Assembly: GCA_964560085.1 (NCBI GenBank)
Contig: CAZLKF010000006.1
Location: 13,398 to 77,397, forward strand
Origin: an uncultured Muribaculaceae bacterium
GTDB lineage: Bacteria > Bacillota_I > Bacilli_A > RF39 > UBA660
Length of the DNA stretch: 64,000 bases
Direction: 5' to 3'
Position numbers and translations under genes: made by a program. Of this stretch, positions 9,768 through 38,328 are shown piece by piece (the stretch's first letter is position 1; every line of letters starts with the position of its first letter). Below the pieces are notes generated by a model. That model worked only from the letters and a program-made list of their open reading frames with translations, was not told the origin of the DNA and did no database searches.

Positions 9768-10547
9768 ATGGATTATACAGTTTCAAAAATATTAATAGGC
9801 TTATACAAAAATATTGAAAAAAATTCAGAAATCTTAACACAAGAAATTGTAGTTGATAAATTGTTGGATATAATAAAAAAGTACATGGAGAAACAGAACC
9901 CTGTATATAGTATTATAGAACAAACCACTTTAAAAACATCAATAATTACTAAGACATATTATCCTAAAGGAAAATTTAAAATATATGTTGAAAATAATGA
10001 TATCTATGCCACTTTGGAAATACTAATTGCTCTGATGATGACTAGAAATCAAGGTATCATTATAGCTGATCAGAATATAGAAATTTTGAAGCTGATTGTT
10101 GACATTTTCAATGATTTAACGCAAACAAAATTATTTTTAATTAATGATAATATTTCTTTTTTTGATGAAATTGTTTGTGTGGGGAAAAAGAGTTATTATG
10201 CTGAAATATTGAATTTTTGTTATAAAGATGTTCTTTTCTTTGGGTATGGCGAATATGACGTTTTTATGGCTGAGCATATGGAAAATAAATTAGAAAAAAT
10301 TAAAGATGAACAGAACTATGTTGTTTATACAAGAATTTCTTTGACAGAAGCGCTAATCAAGATGAATGAGAATGGTACAAATTTTACAAGCACAATTTTT
10401 ACTAAAGATGAAGAAGAAATAAAATACTTTGTTGAAAAATGCAACAGCAAAAATATTTATATAAATATGTTTCCAAGTAAGAAATGTTATTTAGATTTAG
10501 ACCTTACTAATTTTGTAAAAATAAAGAATATTGTCATAAGTAAGTAG
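9768..10547 (+). CDS. Hypothetical protein; C-terminus faintly resembles the ProA/aldehyde dehydrogenase C-terminal region
   Basis: RBS aagaaggtga. ALIKMNENGTNFTSTIFTKDEEEIKYFVEKCNSKNIYINMFPS resembles the ProA segment AI.HIN.YGS.HTD.I.T.D...A..F...VDSA.VY.NAST. At 259 aa it is too short for a full enzyme. Confidence 0.45.
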   Translation: MDYTVSKILIGLYKNIEKNSEILTQEIVVDKLLDIIKKYMEKQNPVYSIIEQTTLKTSIITKTYYPKGKFKIYVENNDIYATLEILIALMMTRNQGIIIADQNIEILKLIVDIFNDLTQTKLFLINDNISFFDEIVCVGKKSYYAEILNFCYKDVLFFGYGEYDVFMAEHMENKLEKIKDEQNYVVYTRISLTEALIKMNENGTNFTSTIFTKDEEEIKYFVEKCNSKNIYINMFPSKKCYLDLDLTNFVKIKNIVISK

Positions 10548-10554
10548 GTGTCAA

Positions 10555-12507
10555 ATGGAAATAAAAGAAAATATTCTAATTAGCATTGCTGAATCTGATA
10601 TTGAGAATGGGACTTTAGTATTACCAATTGGGATAAAAGAGATAAATGATTCTGTTTTTTTAAACAATAAAAGTATTAAAAAAATAGTTTTACCAAATTC
10701 TTTAGAAAAAATTGGCTCTAAAGTTTTTTGTGGTTGTCAAAATTTAGTAGAAATTTCTTTACCAGATTCAATTAAAGAAATTTCTGAAGAGACATTTAGT
10801 AATTGTTCGTCTTTAGAAAATATTAATTTAAGTGAAAACATTCAGTATATAGGAAGTAAAGCTTTTTATAAATGCGAATTGTTAGCGGAGATAATTATAC
10901 CAAGAAATGTTCATAAAATTGGTAGCTATGCATTTTCAAATTGCTTGAATCTTACAAAAATAACTATTTTAGGTTCAATTGAAGAAATAAAAAATGGGAC
11001 GTTTGAAAATTGTCAAAGTTTAAAAGAAATAATTCTGCCAAATACTTTAAAAAGAATAGGAATAGGAGCTTTTAAAAATTGTAAGAACATAAAAGAATTA
11101 AAAATGCCTGGTGAATTAAAAGTAATATGTATGAATGCATTCTGGGGATGTGAAAATTTAAAAAGCATCAATTTTAACGCGAAGTTAGAAGAAATTGGTG
11201 ATTATGCTTTTGGTGATACGAAAATTGAATCAGCGGATTTACCAAAAACTTTAAAAAGGATAGGAATCACTCCCTTTCACTTGTGTCACAATTTAAAGAA
11301 ACTGCAGATATATCAACTTTTAAGTAATGAAGTATTAGATGAAACAAATACGAAGATAAGTGAAATAATTATTGATACAAAAAAAATTGAGATTTTAAAA
11401 TCAATCAAAAAAATTATTAATATTGATCAAATAATATTTATTAGATATAAAGATGATTCCTTTGAAGTAATCGATAAAGTAAATAAGTATTATGATAAAA
11501 GTTATTTTGAGTCGATTTTTCCTAAATATGTGGTGAATATTTCTAAAATTATCCGCAATGATAATATTTTTAACATCTATTATTGGGAATCAATATTAGG
11601 TGATGAGTTAAAAGAAATAAATCCACTTGGAATAATTGCTTTACCGCCAAATATTAATACAATTAAGGCGTTTGCTAATAAAAGAAAATATTATGATAAT
11701 GTCATGAAAGATTACAAAGACAATAATATTGAGGAGCAAATAGCTCTTATTAAATTTATTACTGTTTTTAATGGATTGTGTAAAAAAAATAATACCAATA
11801 TCAATAAAATGATCAATGATATTGATTTACATAATATAACAAAACAGTTTAAAGATGTTTACATTAAAGAATTTAATCAAAAATTTATTGATTTATATAA
11901 TAAACTTTTACAAAATTATCCGATTAAAGATATCAATTTAATTATGCCATTTCTTTATAATAATATAGAAAAGGTAACAAAATTGAAAGATATTATTACA
12001 ATAGATCAAATAGAGACTTTGCAGTTGCAGAGTAATTTAGAATGTAAAAATTTAGAAATAAAGCATTATAAGATACCAAAAAAAATTCAAAATTATGATT
12101 GGCTTGATACGACTAATCCTATCAATCTATTATGGGGAATAATTTTGGCAAGTGTTTCTGGGCGAGACCTTGTAACGGCTGATTTAGACAGAAGTGTTCG
12201 CTCATATTTAATTAAAAATGACAAAGGATTGGTTATTGCTTCGTGCCGTGTATATTACAATGTTGAAGAAAAATACTTGCTTTTCAATTCGATCGTTTTA
12301 TCTCAATCTTTTTTAAATCTTGGATATGATTGCAATAAAATCAAAGATGTTCTTATTGAAACTGTTTTAGCTTCTATTGAAGAAACTCTTAATTTTCTTA
12401 ATGAAAAAGAAGCAATAATTACAAAAGTTCATGTTGGTATTAGCGAGAACAATATTCGTGAGCAATTATTAAATAGAGGAGTAAAAATAATCGAACAGAA
12501 CATATAG
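10555..12507 (+). CDS. BspA-type leucine-rich-repeat protein with an uncharacterised ~400-aa C-terminal region
   Basis: About 10 repeats of ~23 aa with the pattern I(P/L)..(V/L)..IG..AF..C..L..I over aa 20-250. No signal peptide is evident. Confidence 0.65.
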   Translation: MEIKENILISIAESDIENGTLVLPIGIKEINDSVFLNNKSIKKIVLPNSLEKIGSKVFCGCQNLVEISLPDSIKEISEETFSNCSSLENINLSENIQYIGSKAFYKCELLAEIIIPRNVHKIGSYAFSNCLNLTKITILGSIEEIKNGTFENCQSLKEIILPNTLKRIGIGAFKNCKNIKELKMPGELKVICMNAFWGCENLKSINFNAKLEEIGDYAFGDTKIESADLPKTLKRIGITPFHLCHNLKKLQIYQLLSNEVLDETNTKISEIIIDTKKIEILKSIKKIINIDQIIFIRYKDDSFEVIDKVNKYYDKSYFESIFPKYVVNISKIIRNDNIFNIYYWESILGDELKEINPLGIIALPPNINTIKAFANKRKYYDNVMKDYKDNNIEEQIALIKFITVFNGLCKKNNTNINKMINDIDLHNITKQFKDVYIKEFNQKFIDLYNKLLQNYPIKDINLIMPFLYNNIEKVTKLKDIITIDQIETLQLQSNLECKNLEIKHYKIPKKIQNYDWLDTTNPINLLWGIILASVSGRDLVTADLDRSVRSYLIKNDKGLVIASCRVYYNVEEKYLLFNSIVLSQSFLNLGYDCNKIKDVLIETVLASIEETLNFLNEKEAIITKVHVGISENNIREQLLNRGVKIIEQNI

Positions 12508-12559
12508 CATTTTCTTGCAAAAAAGTTACCATTGTATTATAATTTATTTGGTGATTAAA

Positions 12560-12898
12560 ATGAAGAATAAGAAAGAAGCAATAAGACTTTTAAATAAAAA
12601 AGAGAACGATACTTGCTTTTTAACTTACAAAGAGATAGCTGAAATTACAGGTTATCATATTAAATACATATTTAAATTAAAAAGGGATTTGCAGAACAAT
12701 AAATTGAAATTAGAGCATGGTAATAAGAATAAAAAACCAATCAATGCTTTAAGTGAAGAAGAGAAGCAAAAAATTATTAGCCTATATCGGCGAAGTAATG
12801 CAAGTATTCGCAAATTTTGTAAATTTTATAATACCCGTAGTTATTCGTGTATTTATAATTTAATTAAAGAATTTAAGGAGGAAAAACATGAAAAATAA
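12560..12898 (+). CDS. Small helix-turn-helix protein resembling the N-terminal DNA-binding part of a transposase (no catalytic domain)
   Basis: TYKEIAEITGYHIKYIFKLKR (HTH) then EHGNKNKKPINALSEEEKQKIISLYRRSN...IRKFCKFY. This resembles the HGN.G..P.N....E.K..I..LY N-termini of some IS-family transposases. Start moved to 12560 behind tggtga. Confidence 0.5.
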   Translation: MKNKKEAIRLLNKKENDTCFLTYKEIAEITGYHIKYIFKLKRDLQNNKLKLEHGNKNKKPINALSEEEKQKIISLYRRSNASIRKFCKFYNTRSYSCIYNLIKEFKEEKHEK

Positions 12899-14486
12899 CA
12901 TTCGTGCACTGATAGTTACATTTGTAGTAGCTAATATACTATTTTATATATGGTTGCCACCATTAAATCCAACATCATTTGAATTTTGGACATTCTTATT
13001 TTTTATATTTTATACATTTATGATAGTAAAGAATTTTTCTCAGGTATTCAGTACAAGAATTGTCAGCAAATCAATTAATCAATTACCGAAACAGGCAATA
13101 TTATATGCTATACCTTTTTTGATAGCTATTGTCATTTTGATTATTAATTTCTTTTGCTCACCAGTTATAAATTCTCAAAGTTATGCTAAACGTATAATTA
13201 TTGATGAAACTGGTAATTTTACAAAAGATGTGGCCGAAGTAAATTTCGGGGCTATACCTTTACTAGATAAAGACTCAAGCCAAAAACTAGGTGATCGTGT
13301 AATGGGTCAATTACCAGAACTTGTTTCGCAGTTTTATGTGTCTGATCTTTATACTCAAATAAACTATAATGATGATATTGTTAGAGTAACACCTCTTGAA
13401 TATGCAGGTTTTTTTAAATATTTATCAAATCACAGCGAAGGCGTAAAAGGCTATATAACTGTTAATTCTGTCGATGGTAATTCCAAATTGGTAAAACTTG
13501 ATGAAGGAATTAAATATGTTAATTCTGCTTATTTTTTTGAAAATTTAAAACGTCATGTTAGATATCATTATCCAACGGCTATATTAGGTACTGAAACATT
13601 TGAAATTGATAATAATGGCAAACCTTATTGGATTATTCCAATAGAAAAATATGCTGGAATTTCTATAAAAACAGAAATCAAAGGAGTTTTAATAGTTGAT
13701 GCTATAAGCGGAGCTATTCAGAAATATGATGTTAAAGATGTTCCAACTTGGGTAGACCATGTTTATTCGGCCGATTTAATTATTGAACAAGTCGATGATT
13801 GGGGACAATATCGTAATGGTTTCTTTAATACCTTGTTTTCTCAAAAGAATGTTGTTGCAACAACTGATGGCTATAATTATATTGCCTTGAATGATGATAT
13901 TTATTTATATACAGGTATAACTTCTATTGAAGCTGATGAAGCTAACATTGGTTTTATTTTAAGTAATCTTCGCACTAAACAAACAACATTTTATTCGGTC
14001 CCTGGAGCTGAAGAGTATTCTGCAATGGCCAGTGCTGAAGGTCAAGTTCAACAAATGAATTATACAGCCACTTTTCCATTACTCATTAATTTAGATGAAA
14101 GAGCAACTTATTTAATTTCTTTAAAAGATAATGCGGGTTTAGTTAAAATGTATGCATTCGTTGATGTGGCTGATTATCAGAAGGTAACGGTTACAGATGC
14201 AAGTGCTGGTATAGAACAAGCTGCAAAAAATTATTTAGAAAGTAATTTCAGTGAAATTGAAATTGATAAATTAACAACTAAAGATATTAAAGTGGTTGAG
14301 ACCACAAATGCAAATATTGATGGTACAACTTATTATTATATTATTGATGAAAATGCTAAGAAATATAGAGTTTCTGTTAAGGTGAACGAAGAGATAATTC
14401 CTTTTATTAAAAAAGGAATTGAGCTTACTATTAGTTTTAAACAAGAAAAATCAATAACAGAAATTTTAAAGCTAATTCAAAAGTAA
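12888..14486 (+). CDS. Hypothetical membrane protein (3 N-terminal TMs plus ~430-aa extracytoplasmic domain)
   Basis: RBS aggagg. 11-nt overlap with the upstream gene. No recognised domain. Confidence 0.6.
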   Translation: MKNNIRALIVTFVVANILFYIWLPPLNPTSFEFWTFLFFIFYTFMIVKNFSQVFSTRIVSKSINQLPKQAILYAIPFLIAIVILIINFFCSPVINSQSYAKRIIIDETGNFTKDVAEVNFGAIPLLDKDSSQKLGDRVMGQLPELVSQFYVSDLYTQINYNDDIVRVTPLEYAGFFKYLSNHSEGVKGYITVNSVDGNSKLVKLDEGIKYVNSAYFFENLKRHVRYHYPTAILGTETFEIDNNGKPYWIIPIEKYAGISIKTEIKGVLIVDAISGAIQKYDVKDVPTWVDHVYSADLIIEQVDDWGQYRNGFFNTLFSQKNVVATTDGYNYIALNDDIYLYTGITSIEADEANIGFILSNLRTKQTTFYSVPGAEEYSAMASAEGQVQQMNYTATFPLLINLDERATYLISLKDNAGLVKMYAFVDVADYQKVTVTDASAGIEQAAKNYLESNFSEIEIDKLTTKDIKVVETTNANIDGTTYYYIIDENAKKYRVSVKVNEEIIPFIKKGIELTISFKQEKSITEILKLIQK

Positions 14487-14524
14487 AAATTTAAAATATA
14501 GTTTAAAAGAATAGCGGGGTTAAA

Positions 14525-16402
14525 ATGAAAGATAATAAGATTATTAATTTTGAAAATATATTAATAGCTATATTTTCGATTTTAATTATTATTACAGCTG
14601 CAGTTTTATTAAATGAAAAGCCTAAAACTTATTGCCTGGTTAATATAAATCAAACAGCTCTAACAAATCAAAATGTAAAGCTATTTGTTTATGCTCGTGG
14701 TGATAATGCGAAAATTCGAACTGAAAATGGTTCAATAATCAATAGTGATTATTATGAACTTGAGGTAACGGAAAATGGAGAATATACATTTGCGGCAGTA
14801 TCAGGGAATAAAACGCAAGCGTGTTCTTTTAACGTTAATAATATTGATAGAGAAAAACCTAAAGTTTCGATAACCCCAAGCACAAAGAATCGTGTGTTAG
14901 CATTAGATTTGCAAATTTCGGCAAGTGACAATTTTGCTCTTGCAGAAAAACCGTATTCGTGGGATAACAAAACATGGACAAATAGTAAGCAAAAAAGAAT
15001 AACGGCAAATGGTACGTATACTATTTATGTAAAAGATAGTGCAGGTAATATAAGTAATACGTCTTATAAGATAAGCAACATTGGGAATCCTATAATATCA
15101 AGTACTTTAACGATGAATATAAATACAACGAAAAATTTGTCAGCTGATAATAATGTTGTTAAATCATGGATATCTAACAATTCTAATGTTGTGAGTGTTA
15201 CTACATCAGGGGTTGTAACTGCTAAAATTAGAGGCGTAGCAACCATCACAGCGATATTAACTAATGGTGATATGTATACATGGGCTATTAATGTAGTCAA
15301 ACCCAATGTCACGAGTATTGCTCTTAATACTAACAATATACAATTAAAGCCTGGGACGGCATTCAAAATTTTCATAAAACAAATAGTTCCTAACAATACG
15401 ATGTGCGATAATGTTTCTTGGAAGTCTAATAATACTGCAATTGCTAAAATCAATAATGGGACAATAACGGCTATTGCCGAAGGCACAGCAACTATCACAG
15501 TAATGTGCGATCAAGTTAGTGCTAGTGCAACAGTTATAGTTAAGAAGAGTGAAAATCCCATTATTCCTACCTCTAATACTAGAAAATATGAATCAGTTAC
15601 TTTGAAGTATTATGTCCAAAATAAGGGTGCATATTATTTAACATATATTTGGATGGAGGACCCTTATAGCCAAATAAAAAAACTTGATGCCAATACAGCA
15701 ACATATGGTCAAATATTAACTGATCAAGAGCTAACTGGAAAAACATTAAAGAGATTAAGTGTTGGACAAATGCTTGATTCTTATATAGCGAGCGGAAGAA
15801 TTCCTTTAACCAAGGGGTTGGTTGCTTTTAATGCTAGTGGGTTTTATGTGAAAGGTTCATGGAATCCACCATCAGATTATTATAATTTGAAATCGGATAG
15901 TTGGTTCGTCATTAATGAAGGAATTACAACCAGAAATGTTTTAAATGATAATCAGGCTAATCGAAATATTATTGGTATTGATGCTAATGGAATTTTAAAA
16001 TATTATGGAACAGCTGTTGATGCTAATGGCAAGACGAGTATTGTTAATGCTATTAATAACGATAGAGTTAGAAATACATTTTCTTTTGGACCTTTGCTAG
16101 TTCAAAATCGTAATATAGTAGGTGGTGGTTCGGCTTTCGCTCATCGCCAAGCAATATGTCAAATAAACGGTAATAATTATGTGATGTTAACTACTATAAA
16201 TAAGATTAGTTTAGACAATGTCGCTTCTGCGCTTTTAAATATAGGATGTATAAATGCATTCAATTTGGATGGTGGAGGATCAACTTCAATGTTTTATAAA
16301 AGCAATACAAGTACTACTGCTACAAAATATGTTTGTCGAGATGGTTCCACAGGTACATATTGTCGAAGTATAGTTGAAGGCATATATTTTGTTGAAAAAT
16401 AG
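14525..16402 (+). CDS. Surface protein: N-terminal anchor, Ig-like/Big_2 domains, C-terminal phosphodiester glycosidase (NAGPA/DUF2233-like) domain
   Basis: Big_2-like strings VVSVTTSGVVTAKIRGVATITA and IAKINNGTITAIAEGTATITV. C-terminal CINAFNLDGGGSTSM is typical of the phosphodiester glycosidase family. Confidence 0.65.
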   Translation: MKDNKIINFENILIAIFSILIIITAAVLLNEKPKTYCLVNINQTALTNQNVKLFVYARGDNAKIRTENGSIINSDYYELEVTENGEYTFAAVSGNKTQACSFNVNNIDREKPKVSITPSTKNRVLALDLQISASDNFALAEKPYSWDNKTWTNSKQKRITANGTYTIYVKDSAGNISNTSYKISNIGNPIISSTLTMNINTTKNLSADNNVVKSWISNNSNVVSVTTSGVVTAKIRGVATITAILTNGDMYTWAINVVKPNVTSIALNTNNIQLKPGTAFKIFIKQIVPNNTMCDNVSWKSNNTAIAKINNGTITAIAEGTATITVMCDQVSASATVIVKKSENPIIPTSNTRKYESVTLKYYVQNKGAYYLTYIWMEDPYSQIKKLDANTATYGQILTDQELTGKTLKRLSVGQMLDSYIASGRIPLTKGLVAFNASGFYVKGSWNPPSDYYNLKSDSWFVINEGITTRNVLNDNQANRNIIGIDANGILKYYGTAVDANGKTSIVNAINNDRVRNTFSFGPLLVQNRNIVGGGSAFAHRQAICQINGNNYVMLTTINKISLDNVASALLNIGCINAFNLDGGGSTSMFYKSNTSTTATKYVCRDGSTGTYCRSIVEGIYFVEK

Positions 16403-16508: not shown

Positions 16509-18116
16509 ATGATATTAAGAAAACCATATGCTTTTTTCATAAAACATTTTAAACTAATTCATGGAATTATCCTTTTGTGCATGATTTACTTACTTTATAT
16601 TACAAGTAATTTGGCAACATTCTATTCACACGTTGCTGAAGTAAAAACAATTGTCGGTGAATCTAATTTACCTGATTTGTTTAATAAATATATCTATATT
16701 GCTATCTTTATCAGTTTGTTTTTAATTATTTGTATTATTATTTTATTGATAAAAAAAGGTTATAAGTTTCTATACTATATGATAAATGCGATTGCATTAA
16801 TATCACTTATCATTTTTTATCTTTTAGCATACAAAAATATTGAACAAATGCAAAAAGTCGTTGTCGAAGCAACAACATATATGGCATTCAATGATATTGC
16901 AACAATTCTTTTTTATGTTCAAGGAGCTTTAACGTTTATTTGGTTGATAAAAGCCACTGGCTTTGATATTAAAACGTTTGATTTTGGCAAAGATCTAATT
17001 GATTTTGACTCAACAGATGAAGATAATGAGGAAGTAGAATTTGATTTTGAATTTGATAGTAATGAAATAAAAACAACTCGTAAGAGAAAAACTCGTAATT
17101 TGAAATATTATTATGTAGAAAATCGTTTTAAGATTAATTTGATAATATTTATATTTGCAGTCGCTATTACTATATTTGTTGCCATGAAAATCGATGCCAA
17201 TAAAGAAATAATTTATACAGAAGGAACTGAACTATTGACATATCAGTATGGAGTCGAGATAAAGAAAACTTATGTTACTAATTTAAATTACAAATATGAA
17301 AAGAAATATGGCCCAAAAAATTTTATAATTCTTATGCTAGATTTAAAGAAAAATACTATTCAAGAGCAGGTGTTTGAAAGTCAAAATGTGATTTTAGAAT
17401 TAAATGACGAAAGGTATTATCCTACAACGGATTATGCCACAGATTTTTTAGACTTTGGAAACAATTATAACAAGCAAAAGCTAACGAATGATTTTGTTCC
17501 TTATTTTATGATATATGAAATACCATATGAATTCTCAAGTAAAGATGTTTATGCTTATATTGTTAATTATTTTGATTACACAAAAAAAGAATATAATTTT
17601 TATAAAATAAAACTTAATTATCAAAAAATAAATTACGATTACAATTATGAAAACTACGATCTTAATGAAGAAATGACAATCGATCATTATGGAATTCACA
17701 CCAATATTAAAATTACTGATGTTGAATTTGCAGAGAAATATAAATTGGTATACAAATATATTAATAATAATATTGAGTATGATTCAATTGAATATTTAAC
17801 ACCAATAGCCTCTGACAATGAAGATAAAATTATTATGAGACTAAAATTAGAACAGACATTTTCAAAAAGCGAACGCCAATATAAGTTTTACAATCTAATC
17901 ACTAATTTTGGGGAAATTGAGTATGAAATAGATAATGTAAAAAAAGAGGGAAGAATATATTCACTATTGACACCTAAAAATATAAATGAAGAGAATACCT
18001 ATTACATTGAAGTTTCAAAAGAAATACTAAATGCGAAAAAAAGAAATTTGAGAGTTAAAATAAGAGATCAAATATTTGTTTATGATTTGGAGGAAAAGTA
18101 TGAGGAAAAAGCATAA
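16509..18116 (+). CDS. Hypothetical polytopic membrane protein with large extracytoplasmic C-terminal part; first gene of the long co-directional array
   Basis: RBS agagggag. 4-5 TMs in the first 230 aa. Its 3' end overlaps the next gene by 17 nt. Confidence 0.6.
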   Translation: MILRKPYAFFIKHFKLIHGIILLCMIYLLYITSNLATFYSHVAEVKTIVGESNLPDLFNKYIYIAIFISLFLIICIIILLIKKGYKFLYYMINAIALISLIIFYLLAYKNIEQMQKVVVEATTYMAFNDIATILFYVQGALTFIWLIKATGFDIKTFDFGKDLIDFDSTDEDNEEVEFDFEFDSNEIKTTRKRKTRNLKYYYVENRFKINLIIFIFAVAITIFVAMKIDANKEIIYTEGTELLTYQYGVEIKKTYVTNLNYKYEKKYGPKNFIILMLDLKKNTIQEQVFESQNVILELNDERYYPTTDYATDFLDFGNNYNKQKLTNDFVPYFMIYEIPYEFSSKDVYAYIVNYFDYTKKEYNFYKIKLNYQKINYDYNYENYDLNEEMTIDHYGIHTNIKITDVEFAEKYKLVYKYINNNIEYDSIEYLTPIASDNEDKIIMRLKLEQTFSKSERQYKFYNLITNFGEIEYEIDNVKKEGRIYSLLTPKNINEENTYYIEVSKEILNAKKRNLRVKIRDQIFVYDLEEKYEEKA

Positions 18117-19353: not shown

Positions 19354-19389
19354 GGCAATAAATGTTATAATCATATAATAGGTGATAGT

Positions 19390-20001: not shown

Positions 20002-20012
20002 GAAGGTGACAT

Positions 20013-27913: not shown

Positions 27914-28246
27914 ATGAATCAATTTTTAATACCTGCCAATTCAAAAAAATCAATGTTAATATTTGGACTATTCAATGTTACTGATTTGATAATATTTGGT
28001 TCAGGGCTCACAACAACGATGTTGTTGTTGGCTATAATTGGGCCAACTGAAACATTAGATACTTTTATTGTTTTAATACCGCTTTTGGTAACAACACTTT
28101 TAGTTGCCCCTGTTCCTTATTATCACAATGTACGAACAGCAATTAAATCAATATGGACATTTTTCTTGAATAGACAAGTATTTGTATGGAAAGGATGGTG
28201 CATTAGAGATGTCTACAACGACAACGAACAATCAGCAAAGAAGTAA
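27914..28246 (+). CDS. PrgI/TcpE/VirB3-like small two-TM protein
   Basis: RBS gggagg. ...MLIFGLFNVTDLIIFGSGL... then a second TM. Size and position immediately before VirB4 fit the family. Confidence 0.55.
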   Translation: MNQFLIPANSKKSMLIFGLFNVTDLIIFGSGLTTTMLLLAIIGPTETLDTFIVLIPLLVTTLLVAPVPYYHNVRTAIKSIWTFFLNRQVFVWKGWCIRDVYNDNEQSAKK

Positions 28247-30556: not shown

Positions 30557-30582
30557 TATAATTTGAAACGGTGGTGAAAAAC

Positions 30583-33471
30583 ATGGCTTCAAAAGAAAAT
30601 AAATTTGCAAAATCTGAAGGCGGGGCCATGTTGACACCAAATAACAATGCCCAGTCTTCTTTTGGCTTAAATGTTCCTAGAAATCAAAATAATATAGGAA
30701 TGAATAATAGGCAGAATAATGCTGGAGTCGGGCCACAAAATCAAGCTGGTGATGGTGGCGATTCATTAAACAATGGTGAAGAAAATTCACAAAATCAAGG
30801 CGATAATAACAAAAATCAACAGGGAGCATCTACTAATGGTAAGCAAGGTGAAAATAATTCGTCAACAGATGAACTTCAAAAAAAAGCCTTAAAAGAAGGT
30901 GGAAAAGTAGCCTTGATGGCTGCTGGAGCTCCTGCGCCTGTAGCCGATAAAGTAGTTGAAACGGCCGAAAAAACAGGCGCTCTTGATAAGATTAATGCTA
31001 AGGTAAATGAAATTAAAAAAAAGAAACTTTTAAAATTTTTACCTTTATTAAGTGGTCTGCTTCCAATAGCCTTTGGATTTATCATGGTAATTATGGTTTT
31101 ATCTATAGTAATGGCTGCTATGACAGGAGTAGAAAGTACTGCCAAATCGGTAATCAATTTTTTTACTTCGACCTGGGAAGACTTTATTGGGTTATTTTCA
31201 CCAGACTATAAATCAGAAGCAGTATTTTTATCGGCATTGCCGAAAGTCAATGCTAACGCTGACTCTGAAGAAAAAAAGAATATGAGCAAATATTTATCAG
31301 CTATTATGGGGTCTGTATATTATGAAGCTACTACGTTAAATAGCAACGGCACACTTGATACAAGAGAATACGCATTTTATCGTGGACTTTCACGAATTGC
31401 TGAGATTACTTATAATGGGTTAAATTCATCAGCAGGTCGGTTGCGTCCAGAAGTAATAGCTACCAAAATAGCTACATTAAATGAAGAATTACCTTTAGAT
31501 TATATAAAAGACGAGAATGGCAACTATATAACAGACGAGAATGGCAACAAAACGCTAGCTTATGCTGGTACTAATTATGAAAGCGTGCGCAAAGGTCAAA
31601 ACAGCGCTTGGGATAAGATACAAAAATTTGTTAAAGCTTTAAAAGATGATCTGGCAGATTTAGCAAAAGCCGAAAACGGTGGTTATACTTTCGACTTTGA
31701 TGGTGCATTTAAACCTTACTTAGATGAATACATTCAAAAAAATATTATTGATACAAAAATTTCAACAGCAAGTATGGAAGTGTTAAAAGAGAACTTGCTA
31801 ATAACTTGTAATTACTATGAAGAACAATTAAAAACAGCTGCATCAGATGAAGAAACTGCTTCTGCTTCGGGTGAGGACATAATATCTTATTTCGGCTCAA
31901 TTTATGGTGATCAATCGTGTGCAATGTTAACAAAATATGAGCCAAATAATCATGAATTTACAGAGTCACAAGGAATTTCTGATAAAAAAATACATAGTAT
32001 TTATGATGGCGAAGTAATTTATGTCAATCAAGGAATAAACTTATATGATAAATGGGATTCTAAAACTCAAAGATGTCTTTGCGATGGCAAAATATGTGAT
32101 AATTATAATGGATCACAAATTAAAATAAAGTTTGTAGTTGATGAAATTGAATATATAGCAACTTATTCAAATATGGCAACAACGGCAGTCGAAGTTGGCG
32201 ATTCAGTTTCAAAGGGTGAAGTTATTGGCACAGAAGGGAATACTGGTTGTACCAATATAGACAAATTAACTTTTCAACTTACAAGTGAAAGTGGAATAAA
32301 TTATAACACCAATGATTTACTTTATAAATGTAGTAGTTTTGCAAATACTGCTAATACATGTAATTTTAATAATCTCAAAATAAATTTGCTTGATTGCAAC
32401 AATAAAACACTAATTAAGCAAATTCCATTTTATGATTATGTAAAGGAACAAGTATTTGTTAATCATAAGCAAAATCTAAGTGAGATTGAGTATGTAAAAG
32501 CTGCAGTAATCATAAGTGCAAACAATATTCTAAAAAGTGCTAATTATCAAGTTGGTGTTAAAGAATTGGATATTGAAGTTTGTGATTATAAAGAAAAAAA
32601 TATTATTGATTCTTCAATTATTGACAGCAGCATTGATAAAGTACGTGGTCAAATAATGACTTATAATAAAAAAATCGTTGCATTACGTTTTAATGATACA
32701 TGTAATCGAACATTTGAGAACGCAAATGCCAATAGTATATATAATTTAATGTGCAGTAATAATGCATTTAAAATGGCTCAAAATGGGAAAAGTTATACAG
32801 AAATACTTAATACTTATTATCCAAACTACCAATTAGATAACAATTATTGCGTAAATTATGCTGACAACATTAATGAGTACTCTTTAAAAAATGATAAACA
32901 ATATTTAACAAGTGAAACATATACAGATGATGAATATATAAAATTTGAAAAAGAATTAAAAGAGAAAATTAATATGGCTGGTTTTAAGACAAGAGCAGCT
33001 GCAGTGGAAACTGCCCGTTACTTAAGTTTAGGTTTGGATAGTAAAATAGCATATAAAGTAGGTGGAAATTATTTCTACGAAGGCTTGAATAAAAACTGGT
33101 ATGTTGATGGCCTTGATAGTTGTGGCTTTATATCGTGGGTTTTATTTAATGCCGGAGCTAACATTGAACAAAGTATGAATGTTATGCAGTTGATTAGTTC
33201 ACAAAACATAACAGGAAATTTAAAAATAACGAATGAATTTTATAAATATTATGATAAAGTCCAAGTTGGTGATTTCGCTTGGAAAGAAGGACATATTGGA
33301 ATTATAATTGGAAAAAATGATGGTTTGTTATATATTGCGGAAGCAAATAGTAAAGAAGGACTTATAGTAACAACAATAACAGCGTACGGGGAATCATCAT
33401 CAAATTATACACATATATATTTTGCCGATAATTATTATGACAAGACTGGCAATATAACAAGCATGTGGTAA
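30583..33471 (+). CDS. Large multidomain cell-wall hydrolase (PrgK/TcpG/VirB1 analogue): degenerate M23/LytM-like domain plus C-terminal NlpC/P60 domain
   Basis: Asn/Gln/Gly-rich N-terminus, TM LLPIAFGFIMVIMVLSIVMAAM. LytM-like IHSIYDGEVIYV...VGDSVSKGEVIGTEGNTGCTNIDKLTFQL. NlpC/P60 Cys and His contexts GLDSCGFISWV and EGHIGIIIG. Confidence 0.78.
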   Translation: MASKENKFAKSEGGAMLTPNNNAQSSFGLNVPRNQNNIGMNNRQNNAGVGPQNQAGDGGDSLNNGEENSQNQGDNNKNQQGASTNGKQGENNSSTDELQKKALKEGGKVALMAAGAPAPVADKVVETAEKTGALDKINAKVNEIKKKKLLKFLPLLSGLLPIAFGFIMVIMVLSIVMAAMTGVESTAKSVINFFTSTWEDFIGLFSPDYKSEAVFLSALPKVNANADSEEKKNMSKYLSAIMGSVYYEATTLNSNGTLDTREYAFYRGLSRIAEITYNGLNSSAGRLRPEVIATKIATLNEELPLDYIKDENGNYITDENGNKTLAYAGTNYESVRKGQNSAWDKIQKFVKALKDDLADLAKAENGGYTFDFDGAFKPYLDEYIQKNIIDTKISTASMEVLKENLLITCNYYEEQLKTAASDEETASASGEDIISYFGSIYGDQSCAMLTKYEPNNHEFTESQGISDKKIHSIYDGEVIYVNQGINLYDKWDSKTQRCLCDGKICDNYNGSQIKIKFVVDEIEYIATYSNMATTAVEVGDSVSKGEVIGTEGNTGCTNIDKLTFQLTSESGINYNTNDLLYKCSSFANTANTCNFNNLKINLLDCNNKTLIKQIPFYDYVKEQVFVNHKQNLSEIEYVKAAVIISANNILKSANYQVGVKELDIEVCDYKEKNIIDSSIIDSSIDKVRGQIMTYNKKIVALRFNDTCNRTFENANANSIYNLMCSNNAFKMAQNGKSYTEILNTYYPNYQLDNNYCVNYADNINEYSLKNDKQYLTSETYTDDEYIKFEKELKEKINMAGFKTRAAAVETARYLSLGLDSKIAYKVGGNYFYEGLNKNWYVDGLDSCGFISWVLFNAGANIEQSMNVMQLISSQNITGNLKITNEFYKYYDKVQVGDFAWKEGHIGIIIGKNDGLLYIAEANSKEGLIVTTITAYGESSSNYTHIYFADNYYDKTGNITSMW

Positions 33472-33480
33472 GGAGCGTTT

Positions 33481-34188
33481 ATGAAAAAGAAAATAATTGT
33501 ATTATTCATTTTATTACTACTTACTGGATGTAAGGCGAAATATGGATTACAAATTAATTTTGGTGGTTCAGTAATTGAAACAGGTAATATCCTAATTGAT
33601 AAAAATCTTGTTGGACTTGGAGGAACTTCCAATAATACAGACATTTTTCTAGAAGATTTACTTGAAAAATATGGAGCAACTAAATATCGTTTGAAAACTA
33701 AAATTAATGAAACAAATTATATTGGTTATAAATTCTATCATCGCTATAATAATTTAGAATATTACAGTAATCAATCTCCTGCTATAAATCTTCTGTATGA
33801 TTATGTCAACTATAGTAGTTTGGATGGATTTTCAACAATACAAAGTAGTGATAAAAGTAAAATAGATACTTATAATTCTACTGCAAGTGATGTTCCAACA
33901 AAAGTTGAAGAAATAAATATTTCTATAGCATTGCCATATAAAGTGATAGAAAATAATGCAACAACAATAGACCGTGAAAATAATATTTATACATGGGTTA
34001 TAGTACCGGGTGCTGAATCAGAGAAAATAAAATTATCTTATCGCGATAGTGAGCTATTTACAAATAATCCCTTATATTTGGCTAGATATGTAAGCCCGTA
34101 TATATATATAGTAGTTTTGATTGCAGTTGTTGCTATAATAGTAATAATAGTTATAAAAGGAAAAATGCGATATATAAATAAACTATAG
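33481..34188 (+). CDS. Lipoprotein with additional C-terminal TM anchor
   Basis: Lipobox LLLLTGC. C-terminal YIYIVVLIAVVAIIVIIVI followed by KGK. Confidence 0.65.
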   Translation: MKKKIIVLFILLLLTGCKAKYGLQINFGGSVIETGNILIDKNLVGLGGTSNNTDIFLEDLLEKYGATKYRLKTKINETNYIGYKFYHRYNNLEYYSNQSPAINLLYDYVNYSSLDGFSTIQSSDKSKIDTYNSTASDVPTKVEEINISIALPYKVIENNATTIDRENNIYTWVIVPGAESEKIKLSYRDSELFTNNPLYLARYVSPYIYIVVLIAVVAIIVIIVIKGKMRYINKL

Positions 34189-34239
34189 TCTTTAATTTCT
34201 AGGACTTATTTGTTATAATATATCAATTGAGGTGATAAA

Positions 34240-36519
34240 ATGTTTAAATTGACGGCTAATAAAGAAGATGTTATTAAATTCTCGATTTTCTGTGTAGCAA
34301 TGTTCTTGGTTGTCTCAATAATAATAAACAATATTTCTGTTTTTTCAAGTACTGGAGAATTTGCAGGATTTAATCCATTCGCAGTGTTTAGTGATGTAGA
34401 TTCTTTATTGTTAACTTTTGTTGTAACAATTGTAATTCTTCTTAGTATTATTTTTAGTACTTCTTCACAATTTTTTGAAAGAGAAAAAGGCTTTGGATTT
34501 TCATTTTCTAAAAAAGACAAAGGTGGATATTCAAGATGGGCTACTGAGAAAGAATTTAAGGCAGAACTAAAGCACATTTATGCCGATGATAAATCAACAA
34601 GTGCTGCTGGGATACCTTTAATTAATAATGGCCGAGATATATGGATAGATGATGGTGAGTTTCATAATTTAATTATAGGTTCAACAGGTTCAGGAAAAAC
34701 TGAAATGTTGGTTCAACCGATGGTAAAGATTTTAGCCAAAAAAGGCGAATCAATGATTATTACTGACCCTAAAGGAGAAATATACGAAAATAATGCTAAT
34801 GAACTACGCGAAAAGGGCTATAATGTTGTTTTGCTAAACTTTCGTGATCCTCAAAAGGGAAATTCTTGGAATCCTTTAACTTTACCATATGAATTGTATA
34901 AAAGTGGTAATAAAGATAAAGCTAATGAATTATTAGATGATTTGGCAATGAATATTTTGTATGATGAAAAAGCCCAAAATCAAGATCCATTCTGGGAAAA
35001 AACTTCAGCTGACTATTTTACAGGTTTAGCTTTAGGTTTGTTTGATGATGCTGAAGAAAGAGAAATTAATTTAAATAGTATTAATTTAATGACAACTGTC
35101 GGCGAAGAAAAATTAATGGCTTCAACTTATATAAAAGAATACTTTGCTGATAAGGATCCAGCTTCACCAGCTTATGTTAATGTATCTAGTACAATTATGG
35201 CACCAAGTGATACAAAAAACAGCATTTTATCAGTATTTAAACAAAAAATAAAACTTTTTGCGTCTCGTGAAAACTTAAGCGAAATGCTATGTCAAAGTGA
35301 TTTTGATATGAAAGATATAGGACGCAAGAAAACAGCAGTTTTTGTTGTTATTCAAGACGAGAAAAAAACATATCATTCATTAGTTACTATTTTTGTAAAG
35401 CAATGTTATGAAACTTTAATTGATGTTGCTCAAGAAAATGGTGGAAAATTGTCTTATCGAACTAATTTTATCTTGGATGAATTTGCAAACATGCCACCTT
35501 TAAAAGATGTAACAACAATGGTTACAGCAGCGCGAAGTCGAAAAATTCGTTTTAGTTTTATTATCCAAAACTTTGCACAGTTAAGTCAGGTATATGGTTC
35601 AGAAAACGGCGATACAATTAGAGGAAACTGTGGTAATATTATTTACCTAATTAGTAGTGAAATGAAAGCTTTAGAAGAAATCAGCAAGATGTGTGGTGAA
35701 GTTAAGTCTAAGGAAAAAGATAAAACAGCATCAACACCACTTGTTACAGTAAGTGATTTACAAAGATTAAAAATGTGGACAATTATAGTTTTACGTACAC
35801 GTTGTATGCCATTTAAGACAGTTTTAAAACCAAATTATCAAATGGAAAAAGAAAATAAATGGGGTAAGAAATATGAAAAAGCTTCTTATCCTACAAGAGC
35901 GGAAAATAAAGTAAAATTGTTTGATTTAAAAGCTTTTGTTAATAAAAAACGTGAAGAAAAATTAGGATCAACTGGCACTGATACCGGAACAGGTTTTGGT
36001 GGCGGGATGTTTGGCAATAATATGTTTAATTCAAAACCAATTAATCCATTTATGCCTTCTTCACAAAATCAAGCATCGCCTAAGCCTAATACTGATTTTG
36101 ATATAGATGAGATTGTTAAAAAGATAGATGCTAAAATTGCTGAATTAGAAGAGGAAGAGAAAAGGGAAAATCCAATTTCTAATCCAGACAATCAAAGAGA
36201 AAGCAATAATGAAGTTTTACAACCGAAGTCAATTCCAGCAAGTTTTGAACCTACTGTTGTCAATAGACCTGTTGTTGATCCTCAGCCAATATCTAACAAA
36301 GTAGAAGAATTAAAGCCTGATGTTCATAAACAAATAGTGAATACTACTAATGAAGATACTGCTACAGAAAAGTTTGATTATTCAGATGATTATAAAAAGT
36401 ACAATGACGAATTGAATAAAAATCCTCAAATTGACATTATTGAAGAACCTAGTAGTAAGAATTCGGGCAATCCAAGCGATGATGAATTCTTTGATGACTT
36501 TTTTGATGATGGAGAGTAG
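34240..36519 (+). CDS. VirD4/TraG-family type IV coupling protein with long disordered acidic C-terminal tail
   Basis: Two N-terminal TMs. Walker A IIGSTGSGKTE, Walker B FILDEFANMP, IIQNFAQL. The last ~190 aa are low complexity and end in DDEFFDDFFDDGE. Confidence 0.88.
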   Translation: MFKLTANKEDVIKFSIFCVAMFLVVSIIINNISVFSSTGEFAGFNPFAVFSDVDSLLLTFVVTIVILLSIIFSTSSQFFEREKGFGFSFSKKDKGGYSRWATEKEFKAELKHIYADDKSTSAAGIPLINNGRDIWIDDGEFHNLIIGSTGSGKTEMLVQPMVKILAKKGESMIITDPKGEIYENNANELREKGYNVVLLNFRDPQKGNSWNPLTLPYELYKSGNKDKANELLDDLAMNILYDEKAQNQDPFWEKTSADYFTGLALGLFDDAEEREINLNSINLMTTVGEEKLMASTYIKEYFADKDPASPAYVNVSSTIMAPSDTKNSILSVFKQKIKLFASRENLSEMLCQSDFDMKDIGRKKTAVFVVIQDEKKTYHSLVTIFVKQCYETLIDVAQENGGKLSYRTNFILDEFANMPPLKDVTTMVTAARSRKIRFSFIIQNFAQLSQVYGSENGDTIRGNCGNIIYLISSEMKALEEISKMCGEVKSKEKDKTASTPLVTVSDLQRLKMWTIIVLRTRCMPFKTVLKPNYQMEKENKWGKKYEKASYPTRAENKVKLFDLKAFVNKKREEKLGSTGTDTGTGFGGGMFGNNMFNSKPINPFMPSSQNQASPKPNTDFDIDEIVKKIDAKIAELEEEEKRENPISNPDNQRESNNEVLQPKSIPASFEPTVVNRPVVDPQPISNKVEELKPDVHKQIVNTTNEDTATEKFDYSDDYKKYNDELNKNPQIDIIEEPSSKNSGNPSDDEFFDDFFDDGE

Positions 36520-36573
36520 TCGAATATAATTTTAATTTCTTCTTATTGTTCATACAATATATTGGTGAATCAA

Positions 36574-36867
36574 ATGGGAAGAGAAATCACAATTGGTGAA
36601 TTTAGAAAATTAAATAATCTGAATGTTATTGATATTCGTGATCAAAAATCATTTTTAGAAGAACATATTCCTAATTCAACTAATATTCCTTATCTTGAAT
36701 TAATAGTTAATTATCGAAAATTTTTATCCAAAGATAAAATCTATTATCTTTGTTGTGAACAAGGTTTAAGAGGCCGCGATGTTACTGCTTATTTAGGGAC
36801 AAAAGGATATAAAGTTATTAACTTGATTGGTGGATTTGAAGAGTATAAAAACTATAAATACAAGTAA
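36574..36867 (+). CDS. Single-domain rhodanese-like sulfurtransferase
   Basis: Active-site loop CCEQGLRGR (C-x5-R). About 97 aa. Start moved to 36574 behind ggtga. Confidence 0.75.
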   Translation: MGREITIGEFRKLNNLNVIDIRDQKSFLEEHIPNSTNIPYLELIVNYRKFLSKDKIYYLCCEQGLRGRDVTAYLGTKGYKVINLIGGFEEYKNYKYK

Positions 36868-36916
36868 TTTATAGTTTTTTTTTAGAATTTATATTATAAT
36901 GATTATAGGTGATAAA

Positions 36917-37990
36917 ATGGAATACGTAATTGTCGCATTATTAATTGTTTTAATAATTATAAGTGTTTTTTCATTAACAAAAAATATAAATGAATCTAAC
37001 ATTACTGAAAGACTTGGGAAATTAGAGACAAATACAATTAAAGAATTAGGTGATTTTAAAAACGATATTAACAAAAACATTAACGAAGACTTTACTAAAT
37101 TAAATGATCGTATTGAAGAGAGATTAAGAATCATTAATGATAAAGTAAATGAGAGACTAGATCAAAATTTTGAAAAAACTAATAAAACATTCAATTCAGT
37201 ATTAGAACGTTTGTCAAAAATTGATGAAGCTCAAAAGAAAATTGATTTATTATCAAATGATATAGTTTCACTACAATCAGTTTTAACAGATAAGAAATCA
37301 CGCGGAATTTTTGGTGAAGTGAATTTAAAGCATATATTAGTAAGTGTTTTTGGTGAAAATACTAGCCATATTTATCAAATGCAGTATTCTTTTAATAACG
37401 GTACAATTGCTGATTGTGTGTTATTTGCCCCTGAACCACTAGGTTTAATCGCTATTGATTCTAAATTTCCATTAGAAAATTATCAGAATATGGTAGATAA
37501 AAATAATAGTGAATTAATGCGTATCCAAGCTGAGAAAAACTTTAAAATTGATATGAAAAAGCACATTGATGCCATCAGTACAAAATACATTATTCCTGGC
37601 GTAACAACCGATCAAGCTATTCTTTTCTTACCAGCCGAAGCAATATTTGCTGAGTTGAATGCATATCATCAAGACTTAATCGATTATTCATATAAAAAAA
37701 AGGTATGGATTACAAGTCCAACAACTTTAATTAGCACATTAACAACTTTACAAATAATTATGAAAAATATTGAAAGAGATAAATATACAAAGGTCATTCA
37801 TCAAGAATTAAAACTATTAGATGTTGAATTTGGGCGCTATCGTGAAAGATGGGACAAATTGTCAAGAAGCATTGATACTGTATCTAAAGACGTTAAAGAG
37901 TTAAATACAACAACAGATAAAATAACAAAAAGATTTAATTCTATTAATCAAGTTGATGTTGATAAAATAGGAGTAGAAGAAAGAGAGTAA
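36917..37990 (+). CDS. rmuC: DNA recombination protein RmuC
   Basis: N-terminal TM, long coiled-coil, then SRGIFGEVNL...DCVLF...IAIDSKFPLE...ILFLPAEAIF, typical of RmuC. Start moved to 36917 behind aggtga. Confidence 0.82.
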   Translation: MEYVIVALLIVLIIISVFSLTKNINESNITERLGKLETNTIKELGDFKNDINKNINEDFTKLNDRIEERLRIINDKVNERLDQNFEKTNKTFNSVLERLSKIDEAQKKIDLLSNDIVSLQSVLTDKKSRGIFGEVNLKHILVSVFGENTSHIYQMQYSFNNGTIADCVLFAPEPLGLIAIDSKFPLENYQNMVDKNNSELMRIQAEKNFKIDMKKHIDAISTKYIIPGVTTDQAILFLPAEAIFAELNAYHQDLIDYSYKKKVWITSPTTLISTLTTLQIIMKNIERDKYTKVIHQELKLLDVEFGRYRERWDKLSRSIDTVSKDVKELNTTTDKITKRFNSINQVDVDKIGVEERE

Positions 37991-38328
37991 TGAATATGGA
38001 GATTGACAAGGATCAGCTAAAAAAATTGAAAAAATTTATGACTGACTATCCGCAAGAAGCAAAAAAACTTTTAAGAAATGATCCTCAATTATTTCAGGCA
38101 ATTAGTGAGTTGATGTACGACGATGAAGTTCCAGTGGTAAATTTCGGTTCAAATGGTGCTACAGGTAGAGAAATAACTGGAAATCGAAAAACATTAACAA
38201 AACCGGGAGTTCCAGATGGATTATATGTAAATAATGATAAAGGTTTTTCAAATTATTTATTACTAGCCATCCTTGCATTCGCAATTCAATTAGTTATAAC
38301 ACTTATATGTATTTTCTTTTATAAGTAG
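37990..38328 (+). CDS. Hypothetical tail-anchored membrane protein
   Basis: 112 aa with a C-terminal TM YLLLAILAFAIQLVITLICIFF. Start overlaps the rmuC stop. Confidence 0.5.
   Translation: MNMEIDKDQLKKLKKFMTDYPQEAKKLLRNDPQLFQAISELMYDDEVPVVNFGSNGATGREITGNRKTLTKPGVPDGLYVNNDKGFSNYLLLAILAFAIQLVITLICIFFYK

Follow-up and report, generated by a model that had tools for sequence, protein, structure and literature searches.

A chromosomal type IV secretion system joined to a pilus-assembly module, without a linked relaxase, in RF39-like gut Bacilli

The 64,000-nucleotide window analysed here, positions 13,398–77,397 of contig CAZLKF010000006.1 from an uncultured Muribaculaceae bacterium (assembly GCA_964560085.1, placed by GTDB in RF39, UBA660), has about 29% GC with nearly all genes on the plus strand, and contains in its positions 9768–38328 a type IV secretion system (T4SS) of Gram-positive type preceded by a VirB11/Tad-like pilus-assembly module. 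The two together very probably constitute a domesticated machine of conjugative origin, which has become a fixed and vertically inherited core locus of the chromosome. With the mobility genes lost and the locus inherited as part of the core, the machine should therefore serve the cell rather than a mobile element. Literature searches turned up no paper that reports a T4SS from gut Bacilli of the RF39-like kind.

By Pfam and NCBIfam searches of its 25 plus-strand open reading frames (ORFs) the region is a composite of four parts, the last of which lies beyond its right end. Positions 9768–16402 form a variable head of surface-protein and accessory genes (recognized also by a transmembrane (TM) scan), 16509–25446 the pilus-assembly module, and 25575–36519 the T4SS proper with a VirB6-like protein, a VirB3-like protein, a VirB4 encoded by two ORFs, a wall hydrolase and the coupling protein VirD4, while two VirB2-like pilin genes starting at 38428 and 41918 flank rnr-smpB; all are on the plus strand. 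Since these two pilin genes lie outside the block, the system is interleaved with the rhodanese, rmuC, rnr and smpB genes and not merely flanked by them. A first-pass annotation of the DNA had taken the block as a T4SS without mobility genes placed between core genes. The absence of mobility genes stands, but the T4SS fills only 25575–36519, the remainder being head and pilus module, and the pilin genes alternate with core genes; the pilus module, which is half of the block, the two-ORF VirB4 and the VirB2-like genes further right had been overlooked.

Distribution and inheritance of the locus

Homologs of VirD4 with 45–85% identity are found in at least 124 GTDB species-representative genomes, all of them uncultured gut or rumen 'Bacilli bacterium' metagenome-assembled genomes (MAGs), including Mycoplasma sp. 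CAG:611, Clostridium sp. CAG:433 and the UMGS 'Tenericutes/Mollicutes', and the MAG names suggest that the host clade is an RF39-like order. The supercluster is present on more than 574 metagenome contigs, and in the best 80 of these the pilus-module ATPase is 72–90% identical. Synteny by tblastn gives a recurrent order that begins with g16509, g19390, DUF5411, CpaB, the ATPase, two platform proteins, a pilin of 68 residues and 2–4 minor pilins, and continues with 1–3 T4SS_pilin-like proteins, the VirB6-like and VirB3-like proteins, the N- and C-terminal parts of VirB4, the hydrolase, a lipoprotein, VirD4, rhodanese, rmuC, rnr and smpB. Of 80 loci, many of which end at contig edges, 49 and 36 show the order virD4-rhodanese-rmuC, and the string T4SS-rhodanese-RmuC-RNase R-SmpB is preserved in the complete 1.49-Mb genome of a relative (OW818670.1). 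In another subclade (L024:12347–14605 and L016:15293–17548) the genes that come after virD4 encode a thioredoxin/TraF-like protein (PF13728, 2.7e-9), a protein with a bacterial PH domain (bPH), a protein of 419 residues and a g16509-like protein, and no mobility gene was found beside virD4 there. A disulfide isomerase, as the TraF-like protein might be, would fit the Cys-rich pilins.

Co-divergence with the chromosome was assessed by Mantel tests on full distance matrices, which replaced identity to one reference as this was too noisy, and all genomes in the comparison are MAGs. The coefficients are 0.82 for VirB4/RmuC, 0.78 for VirD4/RmuC and 0.86 for VirB4/VirD4, all with p≤0.001, as compared with 0.96 for the core pair rmuC/rnr. 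The mean pairwise distance is 0.28 for VirB4 and 0.29 for RmuC, and VirB4 evolves more slowly than RNase R. Among the readings listed by the first-pass annotation, that of a domesticated machine is strongly supported by the conserved synteny and this co-divergence.

No family match to a relaxase, Rep_trans, tyrosine or serine recombinase, DDE transposase, Rep or ParA/ParB protein was obtained for the 25 ORFs in 9768–38328 with Pfam and NCBIfam, in agreement with what had been read from the sequence by eye, and no block ORF matches a MOB family of relaxases, which would be expected of an integrative and conjugative element (ICE). The ICE of Thomasclavelia ramosa, taken as a positive control, does give matches to Resolvase and Recombinase. 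The only trace of mobility is, as had been noticed, a small helix-turn-helix (HTH) ORF in the variable head. A relaxase hidden in a hypothetical ORF was ruled out. Only g9768, a leucine-rich repeat (LRR) protein, the HTH ORF, two ATPase genes, the N-terminal piece of VirB4 and the rhodanese are without membrane segments in hydropathy and TM scans, the products of 12888, 16509, 18076 and 19390 being membrane or secreted proteins by hydropathy, and the cytoplasmic unknowns are only g9768, which models as an aldehyde dehydrogenase (ALDH) fold, and the C-terminal half of the LRR protein. Among the related loci, MobL relaxase, Aux, Toprim and single-stranded DNA-binding protein (SSB) gave no match in 2.57 Mb of clade sequence, and a search with MobL seeds, and with Pfam on selected ORFs, revealed no relaxase close to the locus, either in the window or among 165 related loci.

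The rest of the window consists of housekeeping and sporulation genes, and about 5 kb to the left and 7 kb to the right of its ends, in DNA from other assemblies of the same strain, a contiguous relaxase or integrase was looked for and housekeeping genes only were found. A repeat search found no direct (att-like) repeats bracketing the block, and the tmRNA (55827–56169) and tRNA-Val (60246–60322) genes are located 19.3 and 23.7 kb to the right of virD4, with no tRNA gene adjacent to the block and nothing else recognized by Rfam in the window. The GC content of the block is 27–32% against 28–30% in the flanks, with GC3 and codon-usage (RSCU) distances within the range of the flanks, and on repeats, tRNA position and composition the impression of the first-pass annotation was thus borne out. 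An empty-site search by exact look-up of rmuC and cysK returned one further contig, of the same strain. The patchy spread, foreign composition and host-decoupled phylogeny of an ICE are accordingly not what is found, since the synteny extends over at least 124 species, the Mantel coefficients are 0.78–0.86 and GC3 and RSCU are native.

The secretion and pilus-assembly genes

The coupling protein VirD4 (34240–36519) matches T4SS-DNA_transf (2.7e-53), TraG-D_C (6e-23) and the CD1115 family (289 bits with a cut-off of 250), and is composed of two TM segments, an NTPase domain, a hypervariable linker of about 150 residues and an acidic-aromatic tail, SDDEFFDDFFDDGE (about 36478–36516). The C-terminal (T/S)DDQFFDDFFxD(D/E)E tail is found in 119 of 120 homologs and is missing from the VirD4 of pLS20, and judged from its sequence it is probably a short linear motif to which a conserved partner docks. 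Acidic tails of this kind are known from relaxosome docking, for example in F TraD-TraM.

VirB4 is encoded by two overlapping ORFs in different frames. The first (28182–28769, about 190 residues) corresponds to positions 95–279 of the Mbov_0397 VirB4 profile (1e-14), and its ortholog in locus L164 bears a TraC-like PF26593 domain; the second (28769–30556, 595 residues) corresponds to positions 294–891 of the same profile (1.9e-107) and also matches CD1110 (8e-52), has the Walker A motif GTSGSGKS and the Walker B motif MVDEAH, and starts within the stop codon of the first (TAATG). As 64 of 64 species loci have VirB4 divided in this way, the split is an architecture and not a frameshift, and it is a previously unremarked feature of this T4SS lineage. 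A VirB4 divided into an N-terminal piece of about 190–225 residues and an ATPase piece of about 600 is present also in pLS20-family plasmids (L165:20899–23386) and in a Thomasclavelia ICE (L167:9327–11821). The ATPase piece is 65–92% identical across species, and because the scores are below the equivalog cut-off (360+53 against 590 bits for Mbov_0397) the protein should represent a distinct subfamily. Among 1.84 billion entries the clade VirB4 forms a single representative at 70%, with the next matches at 45%, 41% and then 34% or less.

The other T4SS genes are more divergent. A polytopic protein of 773 residues (25575–27896) is VirB6-like by weak matches to MMCAP2_0566 (5.6e-6) and pLS20_p028 (2.8e-4), with six TM segments and a Gly/Ala-rich C-terminal extension, and its ortholog in L164 has a weak TrbL_4 match. 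It is followed by a membrane protein of 110 residues (27914–28246) that has no HMM match and is called VirB3-like by position and topology; it is always found directly upstream of the VirB4 genes, with 34–78% identity across loci. Between virB4 and virD4 there is a cell-wall hydrolase of 966 residues in the role of VirB1/CwlT (30571–33471), with a Peptidase_M23 domain (2e-8), a weak SpoIID match and a TM segment, and the L164 ortholog has both M23 and SpoIID. Its C-terminal domain has no match in the PDB, and an NlpC/P60 domain suspected there by eye was not supported by Pfam or PDB searches. The last gene before virD4 (33481–34188) encodes a lipoprotein-like bitopic protein of 235 residues, by topology and position a candidate for the VirB8 place, which is 26–46% identical at the matching position in relatives and gave no match in Pfam, NCBIfam or the PDB.

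The two VirB2-like proteins, A (38428–39246) and B (41918–42709), are paralogs with 53% identity overall, nearly identical in their C-terminal halves and diverged in their N-domains. They contain a signal peptide, a hypervariable Cys-containing ectodomain of 80–300 residues and a Pro/Ser/Thr linker, together with a highly conserved hairpin of two helices whose loop reads KKAKKKL; in A this hairpin is predicted at H178–212/H216–249 by AF2 with a pLDDT of about 75–79. T4SS_pilin (PF18895) is the only family matched, at 1e-4 to 1.3e-5 and just under its gathering score, with 10 of 15 clade members matching and the best of them at 25.6 bits against 26.6; Foldseek with the model (pLDDT 58) and a PDB profile search with the pilin domain gave nothing. 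In most relatives these genes lie after the minor pilins and before VirB6. A direct repeat of 300 nt with 83% identity is formed by their 3' halves (38857–39156 and 42320–42619), and as it brackets rnr-smpB, these core genes would be lost if the copies recombined.

The pilus-assembly module has a secretion ATPase of the VirB11/TadA family (21396–22505; T2SSE 8e-28, VirB11 1.2e-35, TadA-family conjugal-transfer-associated ATPase 1.5e-28), which has an intact Walker A motif GETGSGKT and is scored higher by the VirB11 model than by the TadA-family one. It is preceded by a CpaB/RcpC-like pilus assembly protein with a SAF domain (20422–21396; RcpC 5e-9, SAF 2e-5, and TIGR03177 CpaB 8e-15, which is below the cut-off). 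A homolog of the SpoIIIA-SpoIIQ feeding tube was ruled out, as no block ORF matches a Spore_III_A* family and the ATPase is VirB11/TadA-like with a CpaB neighbour. Downstream are two polytopic proteins (22520–24231) that by position and topology are putative platform proteins, in the place of TadB/TadC and of p38/p39 in pLS20; they are 53–80% identical across loci with weak similarity to each other, and they match neither a T2SSF HMM nor a PDB profile nor the T2SS-F protein of plasmid L166. Four pilin-like proteins in 20013–25446 have a common MKE(A/S) N-terminus followed by a hydrophobic helix, namely the DUF5411 protein (20013–20435; PF17424 1.7e-45), with a conserved MKES(F/L)W leader and 43–77% identity across loci, the candidate major pilin of 68 residues (24287–24493), whose MKEAxGEAN leader and hydrophobic helix are accompanied by a Cys-rich tail, and the minor-pilin-like products of g24508 and g25015 (24508–25446; MKE(S/A) leader and helix), of which relatives have 2–4 paralogs per locus. 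The leader MKEAxGEAN(L/M)TV of the 68-residue pilin is invariant, and its gene has with 41.5% the highest GC content in the window. Since the leaders do not contain the Flp motif G/xxxxEY, the module resembles a Tad system without being a canonical one, and neither a TadV prepilin peptidase (Peptidase_A24) nor TadZ was found by Pfam in the window or among the recorded matches of flanking genes. At the right end this rests on the scan for the ORFs 56356–61997 and on recorded matches for the ABC gene at 62127 and those further right.

The conserved supercluster begins with g16509 (16509–18116), which encodes a polytopic protein with 5–6 TM segments and an ectodomain of 300 residues and has no Pfam, NCBIfam or PDB match; full-length alignments with 26–48% identity place it beside the pilus module or beside virD4 in many species. 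Next to it, in 18076–20001, the TM scan shows g18076 (or 18100), secreted and poorly conserved, and g19390, with a signal peptide and a C-terminal anchor, which is conserved in place at 25–42% identity across loci. Scans for promoters and terminators gave counts equal to the shuffled expectation in this AT-rich DNA, and operon boundaries can therefore not be set. The best promoter-like site of the region is located at 24232–24259 (TTGAAA-16-TG-TATAAT), just upstream of the gene for the 68-residue pilin.

The genes of the variable head are mostly confined to close relatives. The first, g9768 (9768–10547), adjoins cysK and encodes a cytoplasmic protein of 259 residues resembling a truncated aldehyde dehydrogenase or ProA, with a weak ProA HMM match; its AF2 model has a pLDDT of 75.5 and all top Foldseek matches are to ALDH or gamma-glutamyl phosphate reductase (E 6e-6). 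It has 22 homologs, in close relatives only and with invariant cysteines, and it is a gene of the variable head, neither a machine part nor, going by the predicted fold, a relaxase. A BspA-type LRR protein of 650 residues (10555–12507; LRR_5 1e-71, HupY/LrrG adhesin-like 2e-28) has neither signal peptide nor TM segment, is confined to close relatives (L086), and has a C-terminal half of 380 residues that lacks a PDB match and is not conserved in the clade; it is an accessory protein and possibly an adhesin or a secreted substrate. The HTH ORF (12515–12898, 112 residues from the ATG at 12560) has a match to HTH_28 (1e-6) and a weak one to the N-terminal part of an ISNCY transposase (1.2e-4), is 71% identical at the equivalent position in L086, and is either an N-terminal transposase remnant or a small regulator. 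Positions 12888–16402 encode g12888, with two TM segments and an ectodomain, and a protein with Big_2 (1.9e-9) and NAGPA phosphodiester glycosidase (2.7e-18) domains, both seen in the close relatives L086 and L087 only.

On the other side, directly downstream of virD4, the stretch 36562–37990 carries the rhodanese (36574–36867) and RmuC (36917–37990) genes identified by Pfam, and the position of the RmuC start codon was confirmed by exact look-up. The smpB gene (41440–41886) and the tmRNA gene are 14 kb apart and not adjacent. The sporulation genes, at 45863–47760, 59848–60165, 61569–61997 and 8215–8712, comprise those for the Gpr germination protease, SpoIIP, CotF, a CotZ-like protein and a CwlJ/SleB-type hydrolase, and their presence in a lineage whose genomes are about 1.5 Mb in size fits reports that RF39-like orders include both species that sporulate and species that do not. 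The ORF 4953–6158 contains at 5544–6149 four tandem units of about 160 nt with 60–83% identity, which may be LysM repeats, its counterpart in L082 having Amidase_3 and LysM matches, and an abortive-infection gene (Abi_2) is found about 1 kb to the left of the window start (L082:4358–5290).

Proposed function and alternatives

The reading we prefer, with chances that we regard as about evenly balanced, is that of a chromosome-fixed pLS20-type apparatus of low-GC, walled, spore-forming gut Bacilli which moves DNA between related cells. The inventory of the machine comprises three NTPases, a channel set, a wall hydrolase and two kinds of pilin-like proteins. Specific contact with another cell would be made by the pilus module together with the VirB2-like proteins and their hypervariable ectodomains, the hydrolase would open the cell wall, VirD4 might recruit a cytoplasmic partner by its invariant FFDDFF tail, and VirB4 and VirD4 would power translocation through the VirB6/VirB3 channel. 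By analogy, the cargo could be DNA of the chromosome that related cells exchange or import with no relaxase encoded in cis, a proposal to which we give slightly less than even weight. DNA is favoured because the pLS20 blueprint moves DNA, the T4SS of Mycoplasma ICEs transfers chromosomal DNA without a known relaxase, and Ups pili with Ced provide a domesticated precedent; chromosomal or relaxase-less DNA transfer by T4SS-like machines with type IV pili has been described (PMC12857230, PMC9905601, PMC11823120). Several points weigh against DNA transfer by such an apparatus. In none of the species does the cluster contain a conserved DNA-processing enzyme, be it a nickase, SSB or a primase. Genes for conjugative coupling proteins are usually linked to a relaxase gene. 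The very high conservation of VirB4 and of the ATPase would be expected more of an organelle central to physiology than of a device for occasional gene exchange, the pilin-like proteins show none of the Flp motif that is present in the pilins of a Mycoplasmatota plasmid, the platform, VirB3-like and VirB8-position proteins are assigned by position only, and the inspection covers about 76 kb of this genome and, for the relatives, MAGs throughout.

A cell-contact organelle like that of Patescibacteria, which would carry proteins or other molecules into neighbouring or host cells or extract resources from them in a dependent lifestyle, and would not move DNA, is the main rival, though on balance unlikely. 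The locus shares with Patescibacteria the combination of a chromosomal, lineage-wide, relaxase-less machine of MPF-FATA type with divergent VirB2-like paralogs, VirB4 and the ATPase are conserved at the level of housekeeping proteins, the complete genome of a relative is just 1.49 Mb, RF39 is described in the literature as reduced and auxotrophic, and an LRR protein without signal peptide adjoins the locus. The cluster contains, however, no conserved effector, chaperone or immunity gene, the nearest named VirB4 proteins are those of Erysipelotrichales/Mycoplasmatota elements and not of Patescibacteria, the cell-wall and sporulation genes are kept so that the host is not obviously an obligate epibiont, and pLS20, the closest characterised blueprint, moves DNA. 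If the pore instead works in conjugation with a relaxase encoded elsewhere, by a trans-acting chromosomal gene or by resident mobilisable elements, with Hfr-like transfer of the chromosome or help to integrative mobilisable elements (IMEs) as the outcome, this would agree with an intact VirD4 of the conjugative CD1115 family, with its invariant acidic tail that recalls relaxosome-docking tails and with an inspected part of about 76 kb. That arrangement is decidedly improbable, given that the searches with MobL seeds and with Pfam on selected ORFs found no relaxase close to the locus, either in the window or among the 165 related loci, and that it is difficult to see why a helper for parasites should be under purifying selection throughout an order.

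The many pilin-like genes, the hypervariable pilin ectodomains and the surface-protein genes attached to the locus would suit an apparatus in which the T4SS core only builds VirB2-like or Tad-like fibres for adhesion and transfers no substrate, but a coupling protein with an invariant cytoplasmic tail has no role in pure pilus biogenesis, and VirD4 is dispensable for pilus formation in model systems; we consider this very improbable. ComB systems contain VirB2–4 and VirB6–10 only. A DNA uptake of this type, which the first-pass annotation had also suggested, is a poor fit as they have no VirD4, which in this clade is conserved with its tail. Two further suggestions made there, an immobilised or decayed ICE or plasmid and a contact-dependent killing system of the Xanthomonas type, are scarcely credible when taken together. 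The missing mobility genes and the possible transposase HTH remnant at 12515 would speak for the former, which was nevertheless ruled out, all ORFs and NTPase motifs being intact, order and sequence being conserved over at least 124 species and VirB4 co-diverging with RmuC. For the latter, neither toxin/immunity pairs nor the diderm components VirB7/9/10 were found in the block by Pfam and NCBIfam.

Monoderm T4SSs are known almost only from plasmids and ICEs. The clade may be the second monoderm lineage, after Patescibacteria, in which a relaxase-less conjugation machine is a core organelle, here pilus-fused and with hypervariable VirB2-like pilins and an invariant tail on the coupling protein, and we put this forward as a somewhat doubtful possibility. 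If it were true, RF39-like gut Bacilli would live by obligate direct cell contact, be it episymbiosis, nutrient extraction or a host-encoded 'sexual' exchange of chromosomal DNA, the claim that Gram-positive T4SSs have no VirB2-type pili would need revision, pLS20 included, and a second independent case in an order prevalent in human and animal guts would show that domestication recurs in reduced-genome lineages. The tail of the coupling protein, the split VirB4 and the variable pilin ectodomains offer handles for studies of function, and the machine could explain how the uncultured hosts interact with their neighbours and hence help their cultivation. Relaxase-less T4SS calls in MAGs of Bacilli should not be counted as decayed ICEs.

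Comparison with known systems

The ICEs of Mycoplasma, from the related host lineage Bacilli/Mycoplasmatota, provide the best NCBIfam models for the VirB4 (Mbov_0397) and VirB6 (MMCAP2_0566) of the locus, and they encode VirD4 (CDS5), VirB4 (CDS17) and a VirB6-like protein (CDS16). They have no known canonical relaxase, like the locus, and mediate exchange of chromosomal DNA. Unlike the locus they have a patchy spread, lack VirB1, VirB8 and a pilus module, and encode VirB4 by one ORF of about 890 residues. Mycoplasma ICEs are mobile by means of a DDE transposase. The ICE of Thomasclavelia ramosa, which has the nearest named VirB4 (33% identity), resembles the locus in the series of a VirB6-like protein of 704 residues, proteins of 121 and 225 residues, a VirB4 of 606 residues and a hydrolase, with VirB4 split in the same way. 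It differs in having sortase pili, SSB, Toprim_2 and a large serine recombinase (Resolvase and Recombinase domains) and no VirB11/Tad-like module, and it lies as an insertion next to core genes. In a Mycoplasmatota plasmid, too, a VirB4 is joined to a pilus locus, in that case a canonical Tad locus.

The archaeal Ced/Ted systems for DNA import are domesticated, chromosomal and relaxase-less like the locus, with VirB2-like and VirB6-like proteins and VirB4/HerA-type ATPases, and Ced is paired with a type IV pilus (Ups) that gathers conspecific cells (PMC9905601, PMC11823120). The similarity to Ced is remote and confined to HMMs (CedD 1e-11, CedB 5e-6, far under the cut-offs), and Ups and Ced are separate loci. 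The T4SS of Patescibacteria, including Saccharibacteria, shares with the locus a monoderm MPF-FATA-type core that is chromosomal, lineage-wide and mostly without relaxase (PMC12102498, PMC10633639, PMC12857230), as well as arrays of divergent VirB2-like pilins (PF18895/PF04956), reduced genomes and a co-existing type IV pilus, and a 2025 review calls it unique among monoderms as chromosomal, essential and potentially piliated (PMC12857230). The locus belongs to another phylum, its pilus module is physically fused to the T4SS, and its host keeps cell-wall and sporulation genes; by a ranking of similarities, made without a tree, the nearest named VirB4 proteins outside the clade are from Thomasclavelia, Coprobacillus, Solobacterium and a Mycoplasmatota plasmid and not from Patescibacteria.

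The same two-module blueprint is found in the operon of the pLS20-family plasmids (genes 37–55; Val-Calvo et al. 2021, PMC8557374). There as in the locus a VirB11-type ATPase comes before a pair of polytopic proteins and several TM proteins of small size, and there are a VirD4 of the CD1115 family, a large VirB6-like and a small VirB3-like protein, a cell-wall hydrolase and a separate ORF of about 190 (192) residues ahead of VirB4. pLS20-family Bacillus plasmids also give the best plasmid matches to the ATPase of the locus, but identities are low, with 32% for the ATPase, 26% for VirD4 and 23% for VirB4. The pLS20-family plasmids are said to encode no VirB2 homolog (PMC8557374); an ORF of 76 residues with two TM segments in plasmid pJNFE0126A (L165:12417–12647), by size and topology comparable to gene 45 of pLS20, scores 32.1 bits with the T4SS_pilin family PF18895 against a gathering score of 26.6, and pLS20 would thus also have a member of this family. 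The locus differs in having virD4 last in the order, an FFDDFF tail on VirD4 and pilin-like proteins with large variable ectodomains. The pLS20 operon continues with oriT, Aux1, Aux2, the MobL relaxase and a primase (PMC8557374), and the plasmid has in addition replication, partition, surface exclusion and quorum regulation genes, none of which is present at the locus. As the two-module plan is shared, the locus can therefore be described as a pLS20-type apparatus stripped of the DNA-processing, maintenance and regulatory modules.

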